Assembly (NCBI GenBank): GCA_951406725.2
Contig: OX597825.1
Coordinates: forward strand, 46,624,001-46,688,000
Length of the DNA: 64,000 nt
Origin: Octopus vulgaris
Lineage: Eukaryota
Reading direction: 5' to 3'
Positions 18,960 to 55,883 of this stretch are shown here, one piece after another. A program made the translations under genes and the position numbers. The notes below the pieces were generated by a model that was given only the letters and a program-made list of their open reading frames with translations, had not been told where the DNA came from and ran no database searches. Positions within the stretch are counted from its first letter, which is position 1. Each line of letters opens with the position of its first letter.

Positions 18960-20375
18960 CTGGTAATCTGTCATCCAATTCAATCAGCAATCTGGCACTA
19001 ATTTCAGCTAGAAAAATTTCAAATAATTTCAAGTTTCCCAGGTTACCACACCAACTGGCTGGTATGATTTTTGGTGCTACTTACTGCATAAGCACACTCG
19101 CATCATTTGTAAACAAAGGCAGGCCTTTCCAATTTGTTTTTTTTCCATTTATTATTATACCCTTTTCACCTTTAGACCCAGCCATGGTCCCTATGCATAA
19201 AGGAGGTGCTTCATGTGGGGTAAAGTGTAAACACTGTACTTTGTCCTTAAAAGAAAAAGTTGAGCAGATGAAAAAATTTGACAGCAGTGTGTCTGTGAAG
19301 ATTGTGTGAATTATACAACATAGGATCTTTGGCAGTTTACAACATAAAAAACTCCAGAAAGCTCAGTTATTCCATTCCTTTGCTAACAGTGAATCAAAGA
19401 AACAAATGTGTAAAAGGAAAACAATGATAGCTGGCAAAAGTGTAGAACTTGATCACACATTGATGAAGTGGTTTAAATTGTGTGAAAATGAAGATGTTGA
19501 GCTGTCAGGTGATCTTGTAAAGGAACAAGCAAAAAACATTCCATGAGGAACATGGACTGGAATAAGAGTGTGATTACAGTGAAGGTGGCTACAGTGTTTC
19601 AAGGATAGATATGGGTTAATGTTTTGTGCTGTGTGTGATGAAAAGCGATCAGCTGAAAATGCTGACCACGAAATTGTGCAGATGATTGTAAGTCCTTAAC
19701 AGCAAGACAGTGAAGGAGAAAGCAGTGATAAAAATGAGGAAGATGTAAGAGAAAAAGTTTCTATTCATCAGTTTATTCAGCCAACAGGTGAACTGCTAAA
19801 AGGTCTAGAGGAAGAAATAATGAACTGTTATATGCTGCAGGATAAGCTAATTAAAGAAAGGCCAAGATATACAAAACAGCTTAGCTTGCAAGTTATGTTA
19901 AAAAAAAGTAACTAGAAAGTATACAACAGAGGTGTCATCACTTGAAAATCTAGTGCATTCAACATCATCTTGCCCAGATGTGCTACCGCCATCACAGTCA
20001 GTTCCTGATATTTCACTTACCTTACAAGATGATGAAGATGGGAGTCCTGACAGCCCTTCACCTCAAGGTGATAATTCTGATATCCCCTCACCTCAGTGAT
20101 GATCTTTGTATATGTCAACAGAATTAGTGTACCAGTCCAGTACTTTACCACTCATTTTACCAGGGTTTTATTAAAATTTCATTTGATTTCATTAAAATTT
20201 CACTAAAAGTTCATTTGATGTTTCTCTTTTCCTTATTAACCAACTTGTACTGACTTACAGGGTATTTTACCTAACATAACCTAACCAATCATACTTAATC
20301 AATTGATAATCTAGCAAAATCACTAATCTGGCATTCTCCTGGTCATAATGATGCCGGATAAATGATTGTGTAGTG
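18960..20375 (+). mobile_element. Tigger/pogo-like DNA transposon relic (CENP-B-type HTH, internally deleted)
   Basis: LSLKEKVEQMKKFD..., ELDHTLMKWF, LSGDLVKEQAK, SEGWLQCFKDRYG across frameshifts; boundaries approximate. Confidence 0.7.
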
Positions 20376-20740
20376 TACCTACAAATATATGAGACACCGC
20401 TTTGTAAAATGCCCTCAGTTGATTAATATGTATGTTACCATCCTACTCTTTCTTGACTGGAAGGTGAACATAGATTTTAAGTCAGATACATTGGTTTCTT
20501 GAAGAATTCTAGATTCCAGAAAAACATTAACTCAATGATAATAAATCTCTGAACGAGGTATAGACAGTAACTGCACGACAATGTGAAGTATATTTGCCAT
20601 CTAAATATGGCTAACCACTAAGGGTAGATGTTCCTGTAGCTTGTAGCCCCAGGAGAAATCTTCTCCAGCTGGCTGTTGACACACTTTCTGTGCCCTATCG
20701 GTATTTGCAAAGGGAGGTCATCCCTCCCTCGTCAACCTAA

Positions 20741-20799
20741 GTGATATGCACAGACTGCAGTTTCTGGGTATTGACCCGTCATCAGCGCACGGCAATCAC
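20741..20799 (-). ncRNA. Type I hammerhead ribozyme with complete core
   Basis: - strand GTGATTGCCGTGCG-CTGATGA-C-GGGT CAAT ACCC-A-GAAA-CTGCAG-TC^TGTGCATATCAC; palindromic stem III; bulged stem I; predicted cut between 20753 and 20752. Confidence 0.8.
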
Positions 20800-20800
20800 C

Positions 20801-22387
20801 TTTCTCTTTATTATAGGCATGTAGACTGAATATAAAAAAAGGACATTACAATTTACATACAAAACAATACAAAATTTGGGGTACATAAAACAAATAATGA
20901 ATATGAAATGAGTTATGTGTAATGGGAAATGGAATGGCTTACGAGTCCCTCAAGCTCGCAGTTTCATTTATACATTTTGCAACTGTTCCACTTATCCATC
21001 AGATATATATTCGATGACATCCTCCATCCCAATCAAGTTGGGCAGGCTATCATAGCGAACGTCTATTTTACTTACTTTAATCTTTTCTTTAAATGTCTCT
21101 ACCAATTTGTCTATTTTTTCTTTTTCTATTAACACCGCTCTAGCGCTTGGATCGAACATGCCGTTTTCTAATTTCACTCGTATCAGTCCTTTTGTTTTTG
21201 TTAATCTTTTTTCAATCTCCATATTTTTTTCATAAAAAATTAAGCTTCTTATGTTTTCTCCCGTAGGTCGTCCTGTTTGTTTTACATGATTTACTCTCTA
21301 AATCACCTCCCTCCTCCATTCTCCGCATTTCTCTTTTCTGGCTTTACCCTCTTCACTCATTGTCACTGTCTTCAGTTCCTGGGTTCGAATCTCTGTACTT
21401 TTTCTAATTGCTGTTGTCTTTCTTCCTTCATTTTCTTCCACCCTTGTTCTCTTTCTTTCCGCCGTTTTTTCTTCAACTTTTTCTTCTTCCTCTTTTTCTT
21501 CTTTCTCTGCTCTCGCTGCGTCACTGCACATTTTCCCCTCTTTTGCCTGCGCTTCTCTTAGGGGACACCTTGCTTGCATATGTCCCATTCTTTTACAGTT
21601 ATAACATATTGGTGGTCTCCCCTCCACCACCACTCTCAGTCGAGTTTCGTCAGGGAGCACTAACTCTTCTGCAATGTTGTACAAATCTGGCAGGGTTATA
21701 TGTATCAATGCTTCCACACCATAACTCCACCAGTTGACGTCTCTCGATCTTTCAACCTTTAGGATGTCCACATCCTCCCTACAATTACAAATTATAGCTG
21801 CTACAAGTCTCTCTACCTCTAATTCCGGCGGCACCTTTCCTATTTTCACCTTGGTTGCTCGTTTTTCACAATAGGACGAGAGAAGCATCCACCTAGCTGT
21901 TCTTAGTATCATGGTAGCATGTTTCTTGGCCTCCTCCTCACTTTCAAACTGCACCTCCACGGTGGCGAACTTCCTTCCTCTTGCGTAGGAGGTCGTGCTG
22001 TCTTTAATTTCCGTAAGACATTCCTCAATGTCGTCTGTTTCTGCCACTTCTATTTTCTTGTTGGTCACACTCCACATTCTATATACAATAATCTTTTTCC
22101 TCGCTTTTTCTGCATCTTCCTCCGGCGGTGTGATCCGTAAGCAATCACCCTCCTTCTTGAAATTTTCGAAATATTTCTTCAAACCTTCCTTCTCAATTAA
22201 TACTTCTTTCAGCTGTAACATGTCAGCTGACAGGCTTTTGCCTGCTGCCTGGGCGTAACTTATTGTTTGCATACCCACAAAGGGTAGCTACAAAATAATT
22301 TTCAAAATTCAAACAATTTCTAATAACAATTTCTACAACTCACAATATCATAAACTCCAACTCCGCAAAAAGCAATACTTCAACGAC
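20801..22387 (-). mobile_element. ORF1-only non-LTR retroelement, unit 1
   Basis: TSD gcgcacggcaatcacc (20785-20800) / gcgcatgacaatcacc (22388-22403); AATAAA 6 nt from 3' end; no RT or endonuclease. Confidence 0.8.
20992..22272 (-). CDS. Gag-like/LINE ORF1p-like protein (RRM-like region, CCHC zinc knuckle, charged linker, unknown C-terminal domain); one in-frame TAG at 21298-21300
   Basis: MQTISYAQAAGK...GRPPICYNCKRMGHMQARCP (CX2CX4HX4C); ORF 20992-21222 is in the same frame beyond a single TAG. Confidence 0.8.
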
Positions 22388-22403
22388 GCGCATGACAATC
22401 ACC

Positions 22404-24038
22404 TTTCTCTTTATTATAGGCACAATGGCCTGAATGCAGAGGGGACATAACAATACAATACAGGACATGGGGTACATATATTAAAAATACAAAAAGGATG
22501 ATATGAAATGAAATGAAATATTAACAATGAATTAAATGAAATGACTTACGAGACCCCCAAAGCTCGCAGTTTCATTTACAATGAAATGATTACAGTTATA
22601 CTATCTGGGGTGTTCGGCCGTAATGTAAACGAGTAATTCATCTTGCTCTATAACTCCGGGCAAACTGTCATATCGAACATAATGCACCATGGCCACAGCT
22701 GTATCTGAAAACAAATTTCTTAATTTATTTACCGTCTCTTTTTCCACTATTGCAGCCTTCATTTGGTTATCGTATATTCTCGGGTTCAATTTTACTCTCG
22801 TTAGATTTTTCGTTATTGCCAATTTTTTCTCAATTTCTTTATCTTTTGTGTACAATATTACAGCTCTGAGATTCTTTCCTTTAGGTCTTCCTCCTTCCTT
22901 GCATACTTTCAGACATTTTTCCACTTTTGCTGACTATTTTTCCCATTCCTCCCACCTTGAACCTCCACTCAATTTAGTTGCTGCATCTCTCCCTTCGTGT
23001 GTTCGATCCTCTGTCTCGTCAGCATACTTCTTTTTCTTTTTTTGGTCTTTGGGTGGTGATTCCACCCGTGTTCGCTTTCTATCCTCTTTTTCTTGTTCTT
23101 TCCCCTTCCTTCTCTTTCACTAACTCGTCGTCACTTTCCATATTATCTCCTAAATCCTCTGTCAAAGCTCTTATTGCTTCCTCCAGTGTTATCTTCTTCA
23201 CTTGTATTTCTCCTTCAGGACACACATCCTTCATGTGCCCTCTTCTCTTACATTTATAACACACCGGAGGTCTCCCCTCCACCACGACTCTCAGTCGTGT
23301 CTCATCGGGGAACACCAACTCCTCCGGGATGTTATACAAATCTGGCATGGTTATGTGGATTAAGGCTTCTACCGCATAACCCCACCAGTTTATTTCATTC
23401 GACTTTTCCACCTTAAGTATGTCCACGTTCTCTTTGCAGTTGTAGATTATTGCAGCTACTATTCTTTCGGTATCAAGTTCCGGTGGAATTTTGCTTATTC
23501 GTATCCTCGCCGCTCTTTTTCCGCAATAACTAGGGAGTAATACCCATTTTTCCGATCTCAACACTGTCGTTGCGTTCCTTTTCGCTTCATCTTCATTTTT
23601 GAAACGAACGTCTACCGTAGCGTATTTTCTACCTCTATTGTAGAAGGTAGTTCTTCCTTTTATTTCTTGTAGACATTTTTCAATCTCTTCCACTTCTGCT
23701 TCTTCTAATCTTTTTGAGACCACATTCCATGTTCTGTATGTTATGGTTTTTTTCTCCTCTTTTTTCACTTCGTCTTCAGGTGGTGTAACCCTCAGACAGT
23801 CTCCTTCCTTCTTGAAGCTGTCGTAGTATTTCCTCAGATTTTCCTTCTCGATAATTATTTCTTTTAACTGTAATTCGTTCGCAGCCAGGCTTTTGCCTGC
23901 TGTTCCCGCATAAGTTTGGGCTTGCATACCCAACAAAGAATTCAACAATTCAACACGACGCAACAGTTTCCAACAACAATAATCGACAAAATTCAACTCA
24001 CAACCGCAAATCCGAAAAACCGACACAAACACCTCCGC
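22404..24038 (-). mobile_element. ORF1-only non-LTR retroelement, unit 2
   Basis: TSD 22388-22403 / gcgcgcgacaatcacc 24039-24054; 3' end tttctctttattataggca shared with unit 1; AATAAA 6 nt from end. Confidence 0.8.
22601..23927 (-). CDS. Gag-like/ORF1p-like protein, paralogue 2 (frameshift near 23100, TAG at 22934-22936)
   Basis: MQAQTYAGTAGK...GRPPVCYKCKRRGHMKDVCP; C-terminal ORF 22601-22924 homologous to that of unit 1 (RVKL...VRYDSLP). Confidence 0.78.
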
Positions 24039-24062
24039 GCGCGCGACAATCACCGGTTTTCG

Positions 24063-25922
24063 CATTTCTTTATTTGGCACTAAGGCCACAACACAGAGGG
24101 GACACTACAAGGACAGACACAACACCACAGTGGGGACAATAAACATAAAACGGATGAAAATGAATATTATATAATAATGACAAATGAAATGGCTGCATGG
24201 GCCCCACTCCACATGCAGTACCATTGGAACGTTTTTACATTCTGTTATTACAGTCTTATTTTATCTGATTTTTCCTCTTTTTTTCTGTTCATTAAATGTC
24301 ATTTTTTCTTCAGAAATACTCTTTCCTTTCTCTTTTTTCTTTTTTTAAAAAACTTTTTTGTTTTCCTTTTAACGCTTCATATACTGCTCCAGCTCTCTCA
24401 GTTCGATTACTGTTGGCAGCTCATTGAACTCCACTACCGTTCTGCCAGGGTCGATTCTATCACCGCACCTGTCTCTAAGTTTTTCATAAACCACCTTATC
24501 GGCGACCAAACCTTTCACTCTCTCAGAGTACGTGTCTCTGGGCATTTTCACCCTTACGATGTTTTTAAACTTCAAAATTTCCTTTTCCACTTCCTTGTTT
24601 AGGTAAAAAAATTCCATTGTTTCTTCCCTCCTCTAGGCTTTCTCCTTTCTTCCTCTCCCAATATAGGTTCCTCTGTACTCTTCTCTGAGGCTGGAACAAT
24701 ATTCTTCTCTATCTCCACTATAAACAGTTTCTCCATCTCACCCTCTTGTAGCTGAGTCTCTGAAACTTCTGCCAAATCACATGTCGTCCTCATCCTTGTT
24801 TCCTTCTTCTCTGGCTCATTGTCACACAACTTCTTAATTATTTTTTCACTTCCCTTCTTCGCCTTACTTTTGTTATCTTTCTTTCTCATTACGTCTTCCT
24901 TTTCCACCTCTTCTTTCTTCTTTTTCTGGTCAGTCAGTGGCGGGCTTGCCCTACCGCTCCTCCTTTTTCTTTCCACTGTCGTGAAACCCTCTTCCGCTGC
25001 TTTTTCACTACTCTCGACCGTCTCTGCCTGTTCGATATTTTCTTGATTTTCTCTCTGTTGTTTCTGTGGGCATCTCGCCTTCATATGTCCCTTTTCGCCA
25101 CATTCAAAACACACCGGCGGTCTGCCCTTCACCTTCGTTCTCAATGAGAAACCGTCAGGCAACACTATCTCCTCGGTTATTCTATTGAGGTCTTCTACTG
25201 TTGCCTGGATTGTTAATTCCAATCCATAGCCCCAGTAGTCCTGCATATATGTTCTGCTGGCCTTTAGTATTCTGGCCCCATCTTTCATGTTATACATAAT
25301 GGCTGTCATTAGCCATTCCTCCTCCAGCTGTGGGAGGGGGAGGGCACTTGACCGACCGGAACTTTCGCTACACGTTTTCCGCAATATGATGGCAAAAGGA
25401 TCCATACTTCCGAACGAATTGCCTCCATCGCATATTTTAATGCTTCCTCCTCCGATCTGAATCGCACATCCACAGTGGCATACCTTCTGCCTCTCGTTCT
25501 GAAGGTTATAAACTTTTTAATGCCTTCCAACACTTTTACAATTTCTTCTACTGCTGCTATTTCTATTTTCTTCATGGCGACCTTCGTGGTCTTGTAGGTC
25601 ACCGTTTTCTTTAGTATGCTGTTCGTCAGCTCTTCGGGTGGCGTTAATTTTATCGTTTCCCCCTCCTTCTTTATCAGCTTCTCGCAAGCTTTTATTTTCC
25701 TGTCGTCGACTAATATTCCATAAGTCTTTAGTGTTCTTTCCTCTGCTCCTCTCCCAGTTGTAGCTGCATAGCTGCGGCCGCCTGCTGGCGACTTCTCCAT
25801 TTTCCTCAATGGGAAAATATAACGACACAAAAATTAAACAATATTAACAATGATAACGACGACCAGCAAAAATGAACAATTAATTACTCACATTAACGCT
25901 CCGACTTCAACAACTCGAAAAA
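24063..25922 (-). mobile_element. ORF1-only non-LTR retroelement, unit 3 (more divergent family)
   Basis: TSD aatcaccggttttcg (24048-24062) / aatcaccagttttcg (25923-25937); AATAAA 6 nt from 3' end. Confidence 0.8.
24369..25800 (-). CDS. Gag-like/ORF1p-like protein, paralogue 3 (frameshifts near 25340 and 24620)
   Basis: MEKSPAGGRSYAA...RGRRYATVDVRF...LLPSYCGKR and GRPPVCFECGEKGHMKARCP; C-terminal ORF 24369-24617 homologous to units 1 and 2. Confidence 0.75.
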
Positions 25923-26220
25923 AATCACCAGTTTTCGGTGGAGGGTCCCAATGCAAATACATATATCCTTTTTCCAGTGGCTTTCGTCACTGATCTTGAA
26001 AAAGTGTATACAAGCAATAATAAATCTCTGAACGAGGTATAGACAATAACTGCACGACAATGTAAAGTATATTTGCCATCTAAATATGGATAACCACTAA
26101 GGGTGGATGTTGCTGTAGCTCGTAGCCCCAGGAGAACATCTTCTCCAGCTGGCTATTGACACACTTTCTGTGACCTATCGGTATTTGCAAAGGGAGGTCA
26201 TCCCTCCCTTGTCAACCTAA

Positions 26221-26281
26221 GTGATACGCGCGCACTGCAGTTTCTGGGTGGTGTAACCGTCATCACCGCACGACAATCACC
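26221..26281 (-). ncRNA. Second hammerhead copy of the retrozyme, core mutated
   Basis: GTGATGA instead of CTGATGA and GTG instead of GTC at the cleavage triplet; stem I CGTGCG/CGCGCG and GTGAT/ATCAC retained. Confidence 0.65.
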
Positions 26282-26846
26282 GGTTTTTGATTGACGAAAG
26301 CCACTGGAAAAAGGATATATGTATTTGCATTGGAACCCCTCCATTGAAAACTGGTGATTGTCGTACTCAGAAACTGCAGTCCGTGTGTATCACTTAGGTT
26401 GACGAGGGAGGGATGACCTCCCTTTGCAAATACCGATAGGGCACAGAAAGTGTGCCTATAGCCAGCTGGAGAAGATGTTCTCCAGGGGCTACAAGCTACA
26501 GTAACGTCCACCCTTAGTGGTTAGCCATATTTAGATGGCAAATATACTTCCCATTAACTCAATAGCTTTATATCAATTAACCACATAGATGTTTTATAAA
26601 ATTTCTTCTGCTGTTGCTGCTTTAAATCAAATTGGTGGCAGAAGTGGGATTTTCTCCTAGGGTGTAATTTTTCTTCCAAGTCCTTTCTCCTGTATCAAAA
26701 ATTAAAAATAATGTTCTTTTCTTTGTTCAGTCAAACACAATTTTTCTAGCTGCTATGTATGTACTAAGTTTATTCTTAAACTATTTGACTGAAGTTTGTG
26801 TGAGCTTAGTCCATGTCTACTATTTTTTTGTATAGAATTATATTAT

Positions 26847-27013
26847 TGCAGTGTGGAAGGTGTTTATAAGCCAGCACGGAATTTTGTCAGTGAAATTTTG
26901 GCGTGGTCTCAAAGCGACAAAAATATTTTGGCAAATTAAATTTAAATGCTGAAGTGAATCTAACGGATTTTGTGTGTTTCTTAAATGGCTTATAAACACC
27001 TTCCACACTGCAA
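26847..27013. repeat. Short inverted repeat pair (MITE-like)
   Basis: ttgcagtgtggaaggtgtttataagcca ... tggcttataaacaccttccacactgcaa. Confidence 0.6.
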
Positions 27014-27676
27014 TTGTTTTCGTTCCAGCACATGATCTCAGATCAGGTCACTTGCTATGCAAGTACATCTCTGTAATTATATTGTTATTTCATTGGTAAG
27101 ATTCATCTTTTGTTTCTATATTCCTTAACATGACTTGACTTGTAAGTTTCCTTTATAACTAGGCTTGTGTGACTGGTTGTCATCTTATTCTCATCTCTTA
27201 TCCTGAGAAAAGCTTCAGCCTTCTGCATTCATTACAATTAATAATTATCTTTAGTCCTGGCCCTTGCTTGAATGATTTTGTACATAAAAATTGGTATTCA
27301 GCAGACCAATCATTCTGAGAGATTTATAGTTAGCTTTATTCTATTCTCATCATGCACCCCTAATTAGATGCTTCAACTTACACAGTTGACACACAGACAA
27401 CATTAATATTGGTGCTAATCTCTTGTATTGGACATTTTAGTCCACACAGTAGGGCGCACACTCTCCTACCCTGATGTAATCTCCAGGGATACAGGCATCC
27501 AGCAACAGGACCTCTGTAATGCTATGATGGACCGTAAAGTCTGGCGTAACATAGTAAATTCCATTGTCTCGACCACGGTCGAATGGTCGAAGCTTCACTT
27601 ATCGTTCATGTTCTTTTAACAGTTTTTCAAAGCAGTAGCAATAATTTAGTTGATGCTACCATGAAGTCAATGTGAA

Positions 27677-54470: not shown

Positions 54471-55883
<1,413 letters not shown>

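Follow-up and report, generated by a model that had tools for sequence, protein, structure and literature searches.

The locus described here raises the question of what brings protein-coding retroelements into a small ribozyme repeat: in Octopus vulgaris, a 352-bp type I hammerhead repeat hosts three divergent units that encode only ORF1. An earlier note had offered two pictures, a parasite that recognizes the ribozyme of a retrozyme and a retrozyme that carries a protein. The features listed below lie in the window, the whole stretch of 64,000 nucleotides that was analyzed.

Architecture of the locus and identity of the host repeat

20525..20536, no strand: outer 12-bp TSD, left copy, matching 26552-26563 exactly
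20537..20800, minus: 3' partial retrozyme monomer (monomer positions 11-275) with an intact type I hammerhead
20753..20785, minus: hammerhead core, with CTGATGA (20779-20785), stem II, GAAA, palindromic stem III and the GTC triplet ending at 20753
20786..20800, minus: 15-bp TSD copy after unit 1, equal to the 5' strand of stem I
20801..22388, minus: unit 1, Tx1-derived, ORF1-only; ORF in two frames (21298-22287, 20992-21297); AATAAA at 20807-20812
22389..22403, minus: 15-bp TSD copy between units 2 and 1
22404..24039, minus: unit 2, ORF1-only; ORF split between frames (23079-24104 and 22601-22933); AATAAA at 22410-22415
24040..24062, minus: overlapping TSD copies, the 15-mer at 24040-24054 (unit 2, 5' side) and CGAAAACCGGTGATT at 24048-24062 (unit 3, 3' side)
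24063..25922, minus: unit 3, divergent, ORF1-only; three frames (25309-25833, 24599-25516, 24369-24632); AATAAA at 24069-24074
25923..25937, minus: TSD of unit 3, 5' copy, offset by 8 nt upstream from the 15-mer register; the junction recurs in locus L273
25938..26291, minus: upstream full retrozyme monomer; hammerhead (26233-26281) mutated in core and triplet
25954..25965, minus: TATA-like box TATATGTATTTG, a putative promoter; its place is observed and recurs across families
25975..25992, minus: short inverted repeat CAGTG-N8-CACTG, upstream of the TATA-like box
26292..26551, plus: 5' arm of the retrozyme insertion, in inverted orientation and lacking the core (monomer 303-369, then 43-233); a Penelope-like pattern
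26552..26563, no strand: outer 12-bp TSD, right copy

The retrozyme insertion is bounded, as the earlier note had claimed, by a 12-bp TSD with identical CATTAACTCAAT copies at 20525-20536 and 26552-26563. The claimed 352-bp period also held, with the 15-mer at 26267-26281 and a partial next copy ending at 25929, but the plain tandem array gave way to a partial tandem of ~1.7 monomers with an inverted 5' arm. The 3' partial monomer (20537..20800) stops where most genomic copies stop (monomer 275-285). As described before, the three gag/ORF1-only units (1586-1867 bp) are co-oriented, and each has a CCHC knuckle and no RT. Of the junctions, all of which had been read as duplications, three do carry the 15-mer GGTGATTGTCGTGCG (20786-20800, 22389-22403, and 24040-24054) but the fourth, the upstream-most one, retains just 7 nt of it. 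Unit 3 has a duplication of its own, CGAAAAC(C/T)GGTGATT, whose copies (25923-25937 and 24048-24062) are set 8 nt upstream of the 15-mer.

The minus-strand hammerhead at 20753-20785 consists of CTGATGA, stem II GGGT/ACCC, GAAA, and a palindromic stem III (20753-20764 with the GTC triplet), and its stem I has 5 bp adjoining the core; in the upstream monomer, the hammerhead is altered to a GTGATGA core and a GTG triplet. An Rfam search gave no match at the gathering threshold or at E<=5; the hammerhead call rests on the motif and on compensating stem changes between repeat families, of which there are at least 8 cases. The core is intact in 30 of 38 pattern matches, 11 of them from another repeat. 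Across 29 monomer loci, we found partial tandems, an inverted 5'-truncated copy, and a microsatellite bias, all traits of non-LTR retrozymes and non-autonomous PLEs. Judged by its sequence, the host belongs to the non-autonomous Penelope-type hammerhead repeats (retrozymes), for which self-cleavage, circular RNA, and a pLTR in common with an autonomous RT + GIY-YIG element are predicted. A terminon-type PLE is one fixed multi-ORF element with hammerhead repeats between its ORFs; that reading was rejected, the units being single, variable in number and order, and each provided with its own TSD.

The ORF1-only units and their autonomous relatives

The CCHC knuckle was detected in each of the three units (PF00098, E 8e-5 to 3e-3), and all three window ORFs are broken over two or three frames. 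Intact relatives, 1.6-1.9 kb in size, contain one ORF of 424-521 aa, and the ORF1 layout is two RRM-like domains, one CCHC knuckle, and a C-terminal domain. A structure model of ORF1 (pLDDT 73) gave tandem-RRM matches filled by residues 50-219, and the structural lead from the atlas was ZCCHC3-type RBD clusters at 0.90. A PDB sequence search with ORF1 returned zinc-knuckle matches only, and a single-sequence AlphaFold model was discarded (pLDDT 39).

The units bear the marks of target-primed reverse transcription, namely a TSD, a polyadenylation signal, and 5' truncation. Because the unit TSDs are locus-specific and 10-21 bp long, the junction repeats are target duplications and not unit consensus, in agreement with the earlier note. 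By the look of their sequence, the units are HAL1-like half-LINEs, which have kept ORF1 and the 3' tail of Tx1-type LINEs and have no ORF2. HAL1 in the strict sense (mammalian, L1-derived) was excluded, as these are octopus elements with an RRM-RRM-CCHC ORF1 and no L1 Transposase_22 match.

As had been predicted, there are autonomous relatives that encode APE+RT, belong to the ORF1 family of the units, and have a 3' tail similar to theirs. The ORF1 of the units is 27-38% identical over its main stretch (best E about 1e-47) to that of autonomous Tx1-like LINEs in the same genome, and ORF1 homologues lie directly upstream of an APE-RT ORF2 in 27 of 30 endonuclease loci. In these elements a CCHC-knuckle ORF1 precedes an APE-RT-zinc finger ORF2 (Pfam RVT_1, Exo_endo_phos, and zf-RVT); the sole informative name among the 120 matches listed for the RT was a coral "Transposon TX1 149 kDa protein" (39%). 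The autonomous families target (TC)n, (ATT)n, (TATC)n, and two non-microsatellite sequences, with 1-9 ends per family. One window-type unit (L256) is located at the target of a 1132-aa autonomous family, which shares a common 3' tail with ORF1-only units and stacks with them (L214); 17 same-strand pairs within 13 kb were counted by eye. Young intact families are present, both the 1132-aa ORF2 family and near-identical ORF1-only units. Among the 41 window-type tails sampled, none belonged to an ORF2-bearing element, and the 5' junctions of L256 and L221 were absent at the expected place. At another locus (L238), a Tx1 3' end is nested within the 3' UTR of a unit.

Insertion sites of the units

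The earlier note expected nearly all copies to abut GACAATCACC, but the sampled window-type ends that do so number just 4 of 53 and 1 of 41. When window-type ends were sampled by ORF, 46 of 53 led into a hammerhead repeat (chance 2%; the automatic count of 44 of 52 was changed by eye through addition of L078 and L116 and removal of L094); when the 3' tail alone served for sampling, the figure was 29 of 41 (25 by pattern and 4 with damaged cores by eye); 10 of the 41 tail-sampled ends are at unique sites. The hammerhead targets span several sequence families with unrelated stem I sequence. Ends off the 15-mer lie in other hammerhead families or at non-hammerhead sites, among them a Helentron-like repeat and LTR-like repeats, and related lineages use other repeats. 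One unit stops 3-7 nt short of U2 snRNA position 1, and this case has no 5' TSD. In the downstream flanks, which were those covered, a hammerhead was missing from 13 of 14 relatives of unit 3 and from 4 of 5 distant relatives of unit 1. An automatic "terminal" class for lineage B (0/26 hammerhead) was dropped because further units come after many of its members. Because few ends abut the 15-mer, other families with a different stem I and non-hammerhead sites are used, and 13/14 unit-3 relatives are hammerhead-free, the ribozyme sequence does not appear to be what is recognized. Insertion upstream of the hammerhead core with the ribozyme left intact was borne out at the junctions.

Next to the window's own insertions, the first T of the TATA-like box (25954..25965) lies 28 nt before the unit 3 TSD and 36 nt before the 15-mer register, and the CAGTG-N8-CACTG inverted repeat has a form common to the other hammerhead families. 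A TATA-like match of at least 7/8 is found at -34..-22 from the TSD in most loci of 11/11 target families, 5 of them without a hammerhead; this band was picked post hoc, after the data had been seen, labels were assigned to families by eye, and about 3 lineages account for the 6 hammerhead families. As controls, other bands gave 0, 3, and 0 families, shuffles a mean of 1.3 (maximum 6 in 2000), and random window sites 13%. By eye, the TSD starts have no common sequence across families, and being unrelated they define no single conserved nick-site target. The TATA-TSD distance has a spread of ~12 nt (about 24-36 nt), no tighter than the distance from TSD to hammerhead core (17-35 nt). Single sites failed the TATA test in 5/5 cases, and the unique-site ends with a visible TSD (5 of 10) have, by eye, no TATA at -30. 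Overall, position behind a TATA-like box seems to fit better than ribozyme sequence as an explanation of the targeting; the pattern points to transcription-start targeting, and the units are probably aimed at such putative starts.

Independent insertion, copying with the retrozyme, and related systems

At 5 loci (about 250 aligned bases), units that differ by 0-0.2% occupy targets with 5' flanks diverged by 3-5%, and such near-identical units in diverged targets are therefore independent insertions. The corresponding values are 6% for units versus 11-13% for flanks in the window's family and 6% versus 9.5% in a third family. In two hammerhead groups, unit and flank divergence were similar (3.6 versus 4.4-5.9% and 7.8 versus 6.0-6.4%), which is what passenger copying predicts. 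On a tree of 88 units the target label changes 21 times (least possible 8, shuffled 61), and thus the lineages do not choose freely among TATA sites. At L097 the TSD takes in the beginning of the unit lying downstream, which places the entry of the newer unit next to the promoter. Truncated and inverted composites show hitch-hiking of units with the retrozyme: the passenger composite L033 (unit 2 end, monomer, unit 1 start) is cut inside units at both ends, and L070 has its inversion junction within unit 2. The separate retrozyme insertion L273 contains unit 3, joined at its 5' end as in the window and placed directly before the hammerhead; units 2 and 1 were therefore either added downstream of unit 3 or lost by recombination. 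Support exists for both earlier pictures, the retrozyme parasite and the protein-carrying retrozyme. A search of 77 segments for 5' tags gave 18 matches, compared with 0-7 in shuffles; many came from UTRs of the units themselves. Contigs of four runs contained neither a piece that crosses the locus nor an empty-site joint fit for use.

These data allow other readings to be weighed. With little targeting, insertion would be near-random, and units caught between the retrozyme start and the cleavage site would be expressed and multiplied as Penelope passengers. This agrees with the 13/14 unit-3 relatives at unrelated sites, a single retrozyme event common to the window and L273, the passenger composites (L033, L070, L074, and L098), the equal unit and flank divergence in two groups, and the one junction shared by 9/9 autonomous 3' ends in the Helentron-like target. 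We nevertheless consider it unlikely in view of about 35 distinct 3' junction strings in hammerhead families, some differing by point changes only, units far younger than their flanks in three groups, the 21 target changes on the unit tree, and multiple TSD registers inside one family.

Homology homing, in which unit RNA bearing target sequence (a 5' tag from the host start, and hammerhead-cut 3' read-through) pairs with nicked DNA of the same family and each lineage would thereby go back to its family of origin, is in our judgment even less likely. Close relatives use unrelated junction families, unit 2 being nested among units of another hammerhead family (98/98 support), foreign tags indicate jumps between families, and 2-7 linker bases part the tail from the TSD; on the other side, target labels group by lineage, 5' ends hold remnants of earlier targets (L022, L006, L209, L213, and L219), and hammerhead-side 3' junctions are without the poly(A) often present on the Helentron-like side. 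R2 targeting is also said, in a passage of PMC4494074, to gain from co-transcribed target sequence. We give slightly less credence still to the view of the earlier note, that a partner endonuclease recognizes ribozyme-encoding sequence or structure as Tx1L does Tx1D. It would account for the strong hammerhead-repeat enrichment of window-type tails, Tx1-clade endonucleases are often sequence-specific (as stated in a part of PMC4494074), and sister autonomous families end in (TC)n, (ATT)n, and (TATC)n. Against it, stem I and nick-site sequences vary among families, two registers 8 nt apart occur inside the window, sister lineages on the same tree use hammerhead-free targets, and a tight pattern of tail, 15-mer, and core has just 1 exact genome-wide match.

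We favor, with a probability of roughly 0.55, the reading that half-LINEs insert behind the TATA-like box of the retrozyme, stack there, and are copied with it, and that several lineages prefer that interval. The units insert, as the junctions show, by target-primed reverse transcription with 10-21-bp TSDs, and would borrow APE-RT from an autonomous Tx1-type LINE. Several lineages favor the narrow interval about 22-36 nt downstream of the TATA-like box, in multicopy repeats and in sense orientation. This interval would be the transcription start, where TBP-containing initiation machinery or the opened start site may place the integration complex; in retrozymes it falls just before stem I, so that insertion would leave the ribozyme intact and gain the host promoter. 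Repeated insertion stacks units with one TSD copy between neighbors, as seen here. The loaded retrozyme would then be copied whole by Penelope machinery, and composites may recombine via their common junction repeats, in keeping with the truncated and inverted composites. The triple stack of the window was probably built by both routes, repeated insertion and composite copying or recombination.

More tentatively, and at somewhat less than even odds, an animal Tx1-type LINE and its ORF1-only parasites may integrate by position at TATA-directed starts of other mobile elements (hammerhead retrozymes, Helentron-like and LTR-like repeats, and possibly U2), need no promoter of their own, gather short 5' tags from every host start, and make retrozymes into protein-coding composites spread by Penelope machinery, a three-level parasitism of Penelope, retrozyme, and half-LINE. 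If true, this would be a promoter-positioned route of LINE integration in animals, a counterpart of TRE5/Ty3 directed at selfish repeats through their core promoters. The promoter and start site of animal retrozymes, left undefined in those parts of the retrozyme literature considered here, would be pinpointed as well. The locus also shows that retrozymes are able to carry coding cargo and to spread it. Should just the weaker reading be correct, the retrozymes would still be a class of host not described before for Tx1 parasites, and the annotation of octopus repeats would call for caution.

The octopus system extends known TE-on-TE targeting by a new form. HeT-A of Drosophila is a Jockey-type element. 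Like the octopus units, it is Gag/ORF1-only, forms head-to-tail arrays, and needs a partner RT and an upstream promoter, but it is telomeric, has no TSD, and takes its promoter from a neighboring copy, whereas the octopus units have TSDs (passages on HeT-A in PMC5537684). HAL1 elements, as treated in part of PMC5753468, are likewise non-autonomous, ORF1-only, L1-group derived, and of several independent origins; their descriptions come from mammals and from L1, whereas the octopus units are Tx1-type, with a target preference and head-to-tail stacks. Tx1 target choice is explained by endonuclease sequence preference, whereas the related octopus elements enter unrelated sequences whose spacing from a TATA-like box is similar. 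In the Tx1 sections of PMC4494074, Tx1L enters Tx1D (Xenopus), Tx1-Mar enters Mariner-N4_AMi, Tx1-8_Crp and Tx1-4_AMi enter LTR elements, and Tx1-9_AMi enters Harbinger. As here, Tx1-type machinery favors mobile elements, SINEU partners are mobilized to the same target, and host-driven transcription is proposed; the targets there are DNA transposons and LTR elements, read as endonuclease sequence preference, whereas here they are retrozymes of several families and unrelated repeats behind a TATA-like box. According to portions of PMC5911963, TRE5-A and NLTR-A (amoebae) and Ty3 (yeast) insert position-specifically through transcription factors; the ORF1 of TRE5-A, a member of the L1 group, binds TFIIIB, and Ty3 inserts 1-4 nt from the start site. 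The octopus units appear to share this fixing of position, but the microbial elements use pol III genes, whereas the octopus targets are animal repeats, entered in sense orientation by units with AATAAA ends. Animal non-LTR retrozymes have a 170-400-nt type I hammerhead, a long TSD, a partial tandem, and an inverted 5'-truncated copy, as here, and the Penelope start site lies in the pLTR (parts of PMC7229834; bioRxiv 10.64898/2026.07.22.740005; PMC8557442). The same parts describe retrozymes as non-coding and do not mention LINE cargo or nesting, whereas the octopus retrozyme carries ORF1 units.

Anatomy of the composite

Each unit has the anatomy of half a LINE, and three of them are stacked in one retrozyme. 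Consistent with the earlier note, the composite is bounded by a 12-bp target site duplication (TSD):

20525-20536 and 26552-26563: outer 12-bp duplication, two copies flanking the composite

On the minus strand, the stretch between these copies begins with an inverted partial monomer, followed by a full 352-bp monomer whose hammerhead is mutated and then by units 3, 2 and 1, and closes with a partial monomer with an intact hammerhead. The hammerhead consists of CTGATGA, a 4-bp stem II, GAAA, a palindromic stem III and GTC and had no Rfam match; in eight cases from other repeat families, the stems differ in sequence but keep their pairing. The 15-mer that overlaps the 5' strand of stem I is present at three junctions of the window; the 15-bp duplication that belongs to unit 3 is a separate one, shifted 8 nt upstream. 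The three units are far diverged from one another and all are frameshifted; in an 88-unit tree, the best identity to other rows is at most 63% for unit 1 and at most 52% for unit 3.

A protein search with unit 2 gave 14,816 candidates, of which 150 were scored, and a second ORF1-only lineage (lineage B) gave 124 scored matches; the loci examined were the top 30, 20 larger regions and 60 further unit-2 matches. Intact unit ORFs span 424-521 aa. The unit ORF holds one CCHC knuckle, its Atlas lead is to ZCCHC3-type domains, and its alignment-based structure model (pLDDT 73) matches tandem RRM proteins. Among 7,999 scored candidates, its sole protein homologue was from Octopus bimaculoides. Nine further loci (L228, L235, L239, L240, L243, L250, L251, L257 and L258) represent more lineages with the window-type tail, mostly inside hammerhead repeats; their 3' UTR is unrelated, and the 560 bp examined do not match the C-terminal domain of lineage A.

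Elsewhere in the window, positions 19190-20380 hold a decayed reading frame with an LSLKEKV motif, which we take to resemble the N-terminal HTH of Tigger/pogo transposase; 26845-27014 is a MITE-like 29-bp perfect inverted repeat with a 112-bp spacer, and 54472-55881 is a 1.4-kb (TA)n tract.

Insertion sites and the TATA-like box

Units end in AATAAA and a few bases, followed by a TSD of 10-21 bp that is specific to each locus; the junction repeat is therefore part of the target and not of the unit consensus. A hammerhead repeat follows 46 of the 53 window-type 3' ends that have no further unit behind them (44 of 52 automatically, to which inspection by eye added L078 and L116 while taking out L094; the count excludes 12 duplicate loci, 3 ends of non-canonical form and every unit whose 3' end was not detected). 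A tail pattern that does not depend on the ORF gave 116 exact matches (control, 0), from which 41 ends in 40 additional loci were sampled. Here the hammerhead was found at 25 ends by pattern and at 4 more, damaged, by eye; the remainder comprised 1 end before U2 snRNA, 1 at a target of the 1132-aa family (an autonomous Tx1-like LINE named for its ORF2 length) and 10 at unique sites. The chance rate of the loose hammerhead pattern is 2%. Enrichment right before stem I recurs in several families. The ribozyme sequence, however, is not the target: the prediction that nearly all copies would abut the 15-mer failed, as it occurs at only 4/53 and 1/41 ends, and TSD-start sequences are unrelated across target families.

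The sister tail type had a hammerhead at none of 5 ends; its targets are presumably a Helentron-like repeat and LTR-like repeats. Further, when 14 unit-3 and 6 unit-1 relatives of 40 scored matches were examined, 3' flanks were unrelated in 13/14 and in 4/5 distant unit-1 relatives, which we count against general targeting. At L241:1-103 (with L272 and L260), a window-type unit stops a few bases short of position 1 in what looks like a full-length copy of U2 snRNA (Rfam, 97.5 bits), and no matching 5' TSD was found for the L241 unit. The unit-3 relative at L284 ends ∼45 nt before a TGGCG motif, which looks to us like an LTR primer-binding site, and may sit in an LTR.

What the targets share is a TATA-like box. 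Scored against TATAWAWR, which we take as the consensus, a 7/8 or 8/8 match starts 22-34 nt upstream of the TSD start at most loci in 11/11 target families (49 loci), where the band was set after inspection, families were assigned by eye and the six families with a hammerhead may reduce to three lineages. The counts were 0, 3 and 0 families in other bands, shuffles averaged 1.3 with at most 6, and a match was present at 13% of random window sites and 0/5 single sites. The window's own box precedes the TSD of unit 3 by 28 nt and the 15-mer by 36 nt. At L097, a stacked locus, the TSD takes in the first part of the unit that follows, which places the entry of the newer unit beside the box. Overall, the phenomenon is real and broader than the earlier note supposed: the units are Tx1 derivatives with ORF1 only, which insert preferentially in the start region of retrozymes and of other repeats and later travel with these.

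Proposed mechanism, alternatives and composite movement

The best overall explanation, to which we give a probability of roughly 55%, is that the insertion zone would be the host's transcription start site, with the nick placed by initiation factors or by the opened start site, and that the units would use the host promoter. At the 5' end, a few units keep 12-17 nt left over from other targets (L022, from offset 0; L006, L209, L213 and L219), as expected if transcripts begin at the TSD, although their count is not decisive. A T run at 25997-26002 (minus strand, monomer ∼290-295), lies between the usual retrozyme 3' end, which it closely follows, and the promoter-like region; it may act as a polymerase III terminator, in which case the TATA-like box would be of the polymerase III type.

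Alternatively, passengers carried along with their repeats may have inflated the hammerhead association. In two groups, unit and target divergence is about equal; elsewhere, units that differ by 0-0.2% occupy targets that differ by 3-5%, and in the window's family the values are 6% versus 11-13%. The target label changes 21 times in the 88-unit tree (least possible, 8; shuffled, 61), where unit 2 is nested among units of another hammerhead family. Independent insertion and hitch-hiking both occur, and we consider inflation an unlikely account. Homing through RNA homology, to which the 5' remnants are also relevant, appears more doubtful still. Recognition of the ribozyme sequence itself is, by a narrow margin, the least probable of these readings.

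Composites also move as wholes. At L033, a full monomer lies between units and both ends are cut within units; at L070, the inversion junction falls inside unit 2; and at L273, unit 3 has the same 5' junction as in the window but in a separate retrozyme insertion. L098 (G000:C12:47661028-47665528), a composite of unit 1 in head-to-head arrangement that lies 1 Mb away from the window, has unit-1 3' ends 98-99% identical to those of the window but only 92% identity over the full unit, which suggests conversion or recombination. The stack in the window thus probably arose as a mosaic, through insertion as well as through recombination between retrozymes that carried units.

Autonomous relatives and the host retrozyme

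The earlier note advised looking for an autonomous APE+RT partner with the same ORF1 and 3' end. A Pfam endonuclease search returned LINEs with a 1132-1149-aa ORF2 of APE-RT-zinc-finger architecture; in 27/30 loci, the identity between their ORF1 and the unit ORF is 27-38%, and the 3' tail pattern is common to both. They would belong to the Tx1 clade, as judged by architecture and one named match rather than a reference tree. Three intact-ORF2 families (1138, 1145 and 1149 aa; L203/L204, L207/L208 and L206) terminate in (TC)n, (ATT)n and (TATC)n, with 1-2 ends each, and the 1145-aa family also forms 5.9-kb head-to-tail arrays. The 1132-aa family has 3' ends at two non-microsatellite targets, lies downstream of ORF1-only units in 17 same-strand pairs (by eye) and at L214 directly precedes such a unit; the window-type lineage may have this family, or an extinct relative, as its partner. 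One repeat, presumably non-autonomous and Helentron-like, houses long stacks in which two ORF1-only lineages are mixed with the 1132-aa LINE, young and near-identical units among them (L061, L062, L072, L106-L112 and L263-L271). Some lineage B arrays exceed 15 units, and L238 holds the 3' end of a Tx1-like ORF2 element lodged within the 3' UTR of a window-type unit.

Tx1L and Tx1-Mar likewise target other mobile elements (PMC4494074), HAL1 (PMC5753468) and HeT-A (PMC5537684) work like the octopus units, and TRE5-A and Ty3 (PMC5911963) would resemble them if insertion is indeed positional. Full-text literature searches brought up no account of hammerhead repeats that harbour Tx1 or ORF1-only elements; Repbase and Dfam lay outside this comparison, and prior cataloguing is possible. 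In an octopus repeat annotation from 2026 (PMC13282606), L1-Tx1 accounts for 80 families, and the available parts of its text and one supplement, apart from the consensus library, do not mention hammerheads, nesting or ORF1-only elements.

A monomer search gave 3,972 first-look candidates, a figure that is not a copy number. The 29 distinct loci are partial tandems of 1-2 monomers. An inverted 5' arm is frequent, and most of the loci stop at monomer position 270-290, adjoining (TA)n; 6 of the 29 carry units. This is the Penelope-type layout (PMC8557442) and fits retrozymes as non-autonomous Penelope-like elements (PLEs) (bioRxiv 10.64898/2026.07.22.740005; PMC7229834), and multimeric PLE transcripts from the promoter of the PLE repeat (pLTR) are supported (PMC11167929). 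At L038:1962-2708, a tandem minisatellite (50-bp period, ∼14 copies) is built of the hammerhead 5' part (monomer 2-53). The L031-L060 flanks contain a second abundant hammerhead-like core from another repeat, CTGATGA ... GAAACTCGAAA, with 11 matches.
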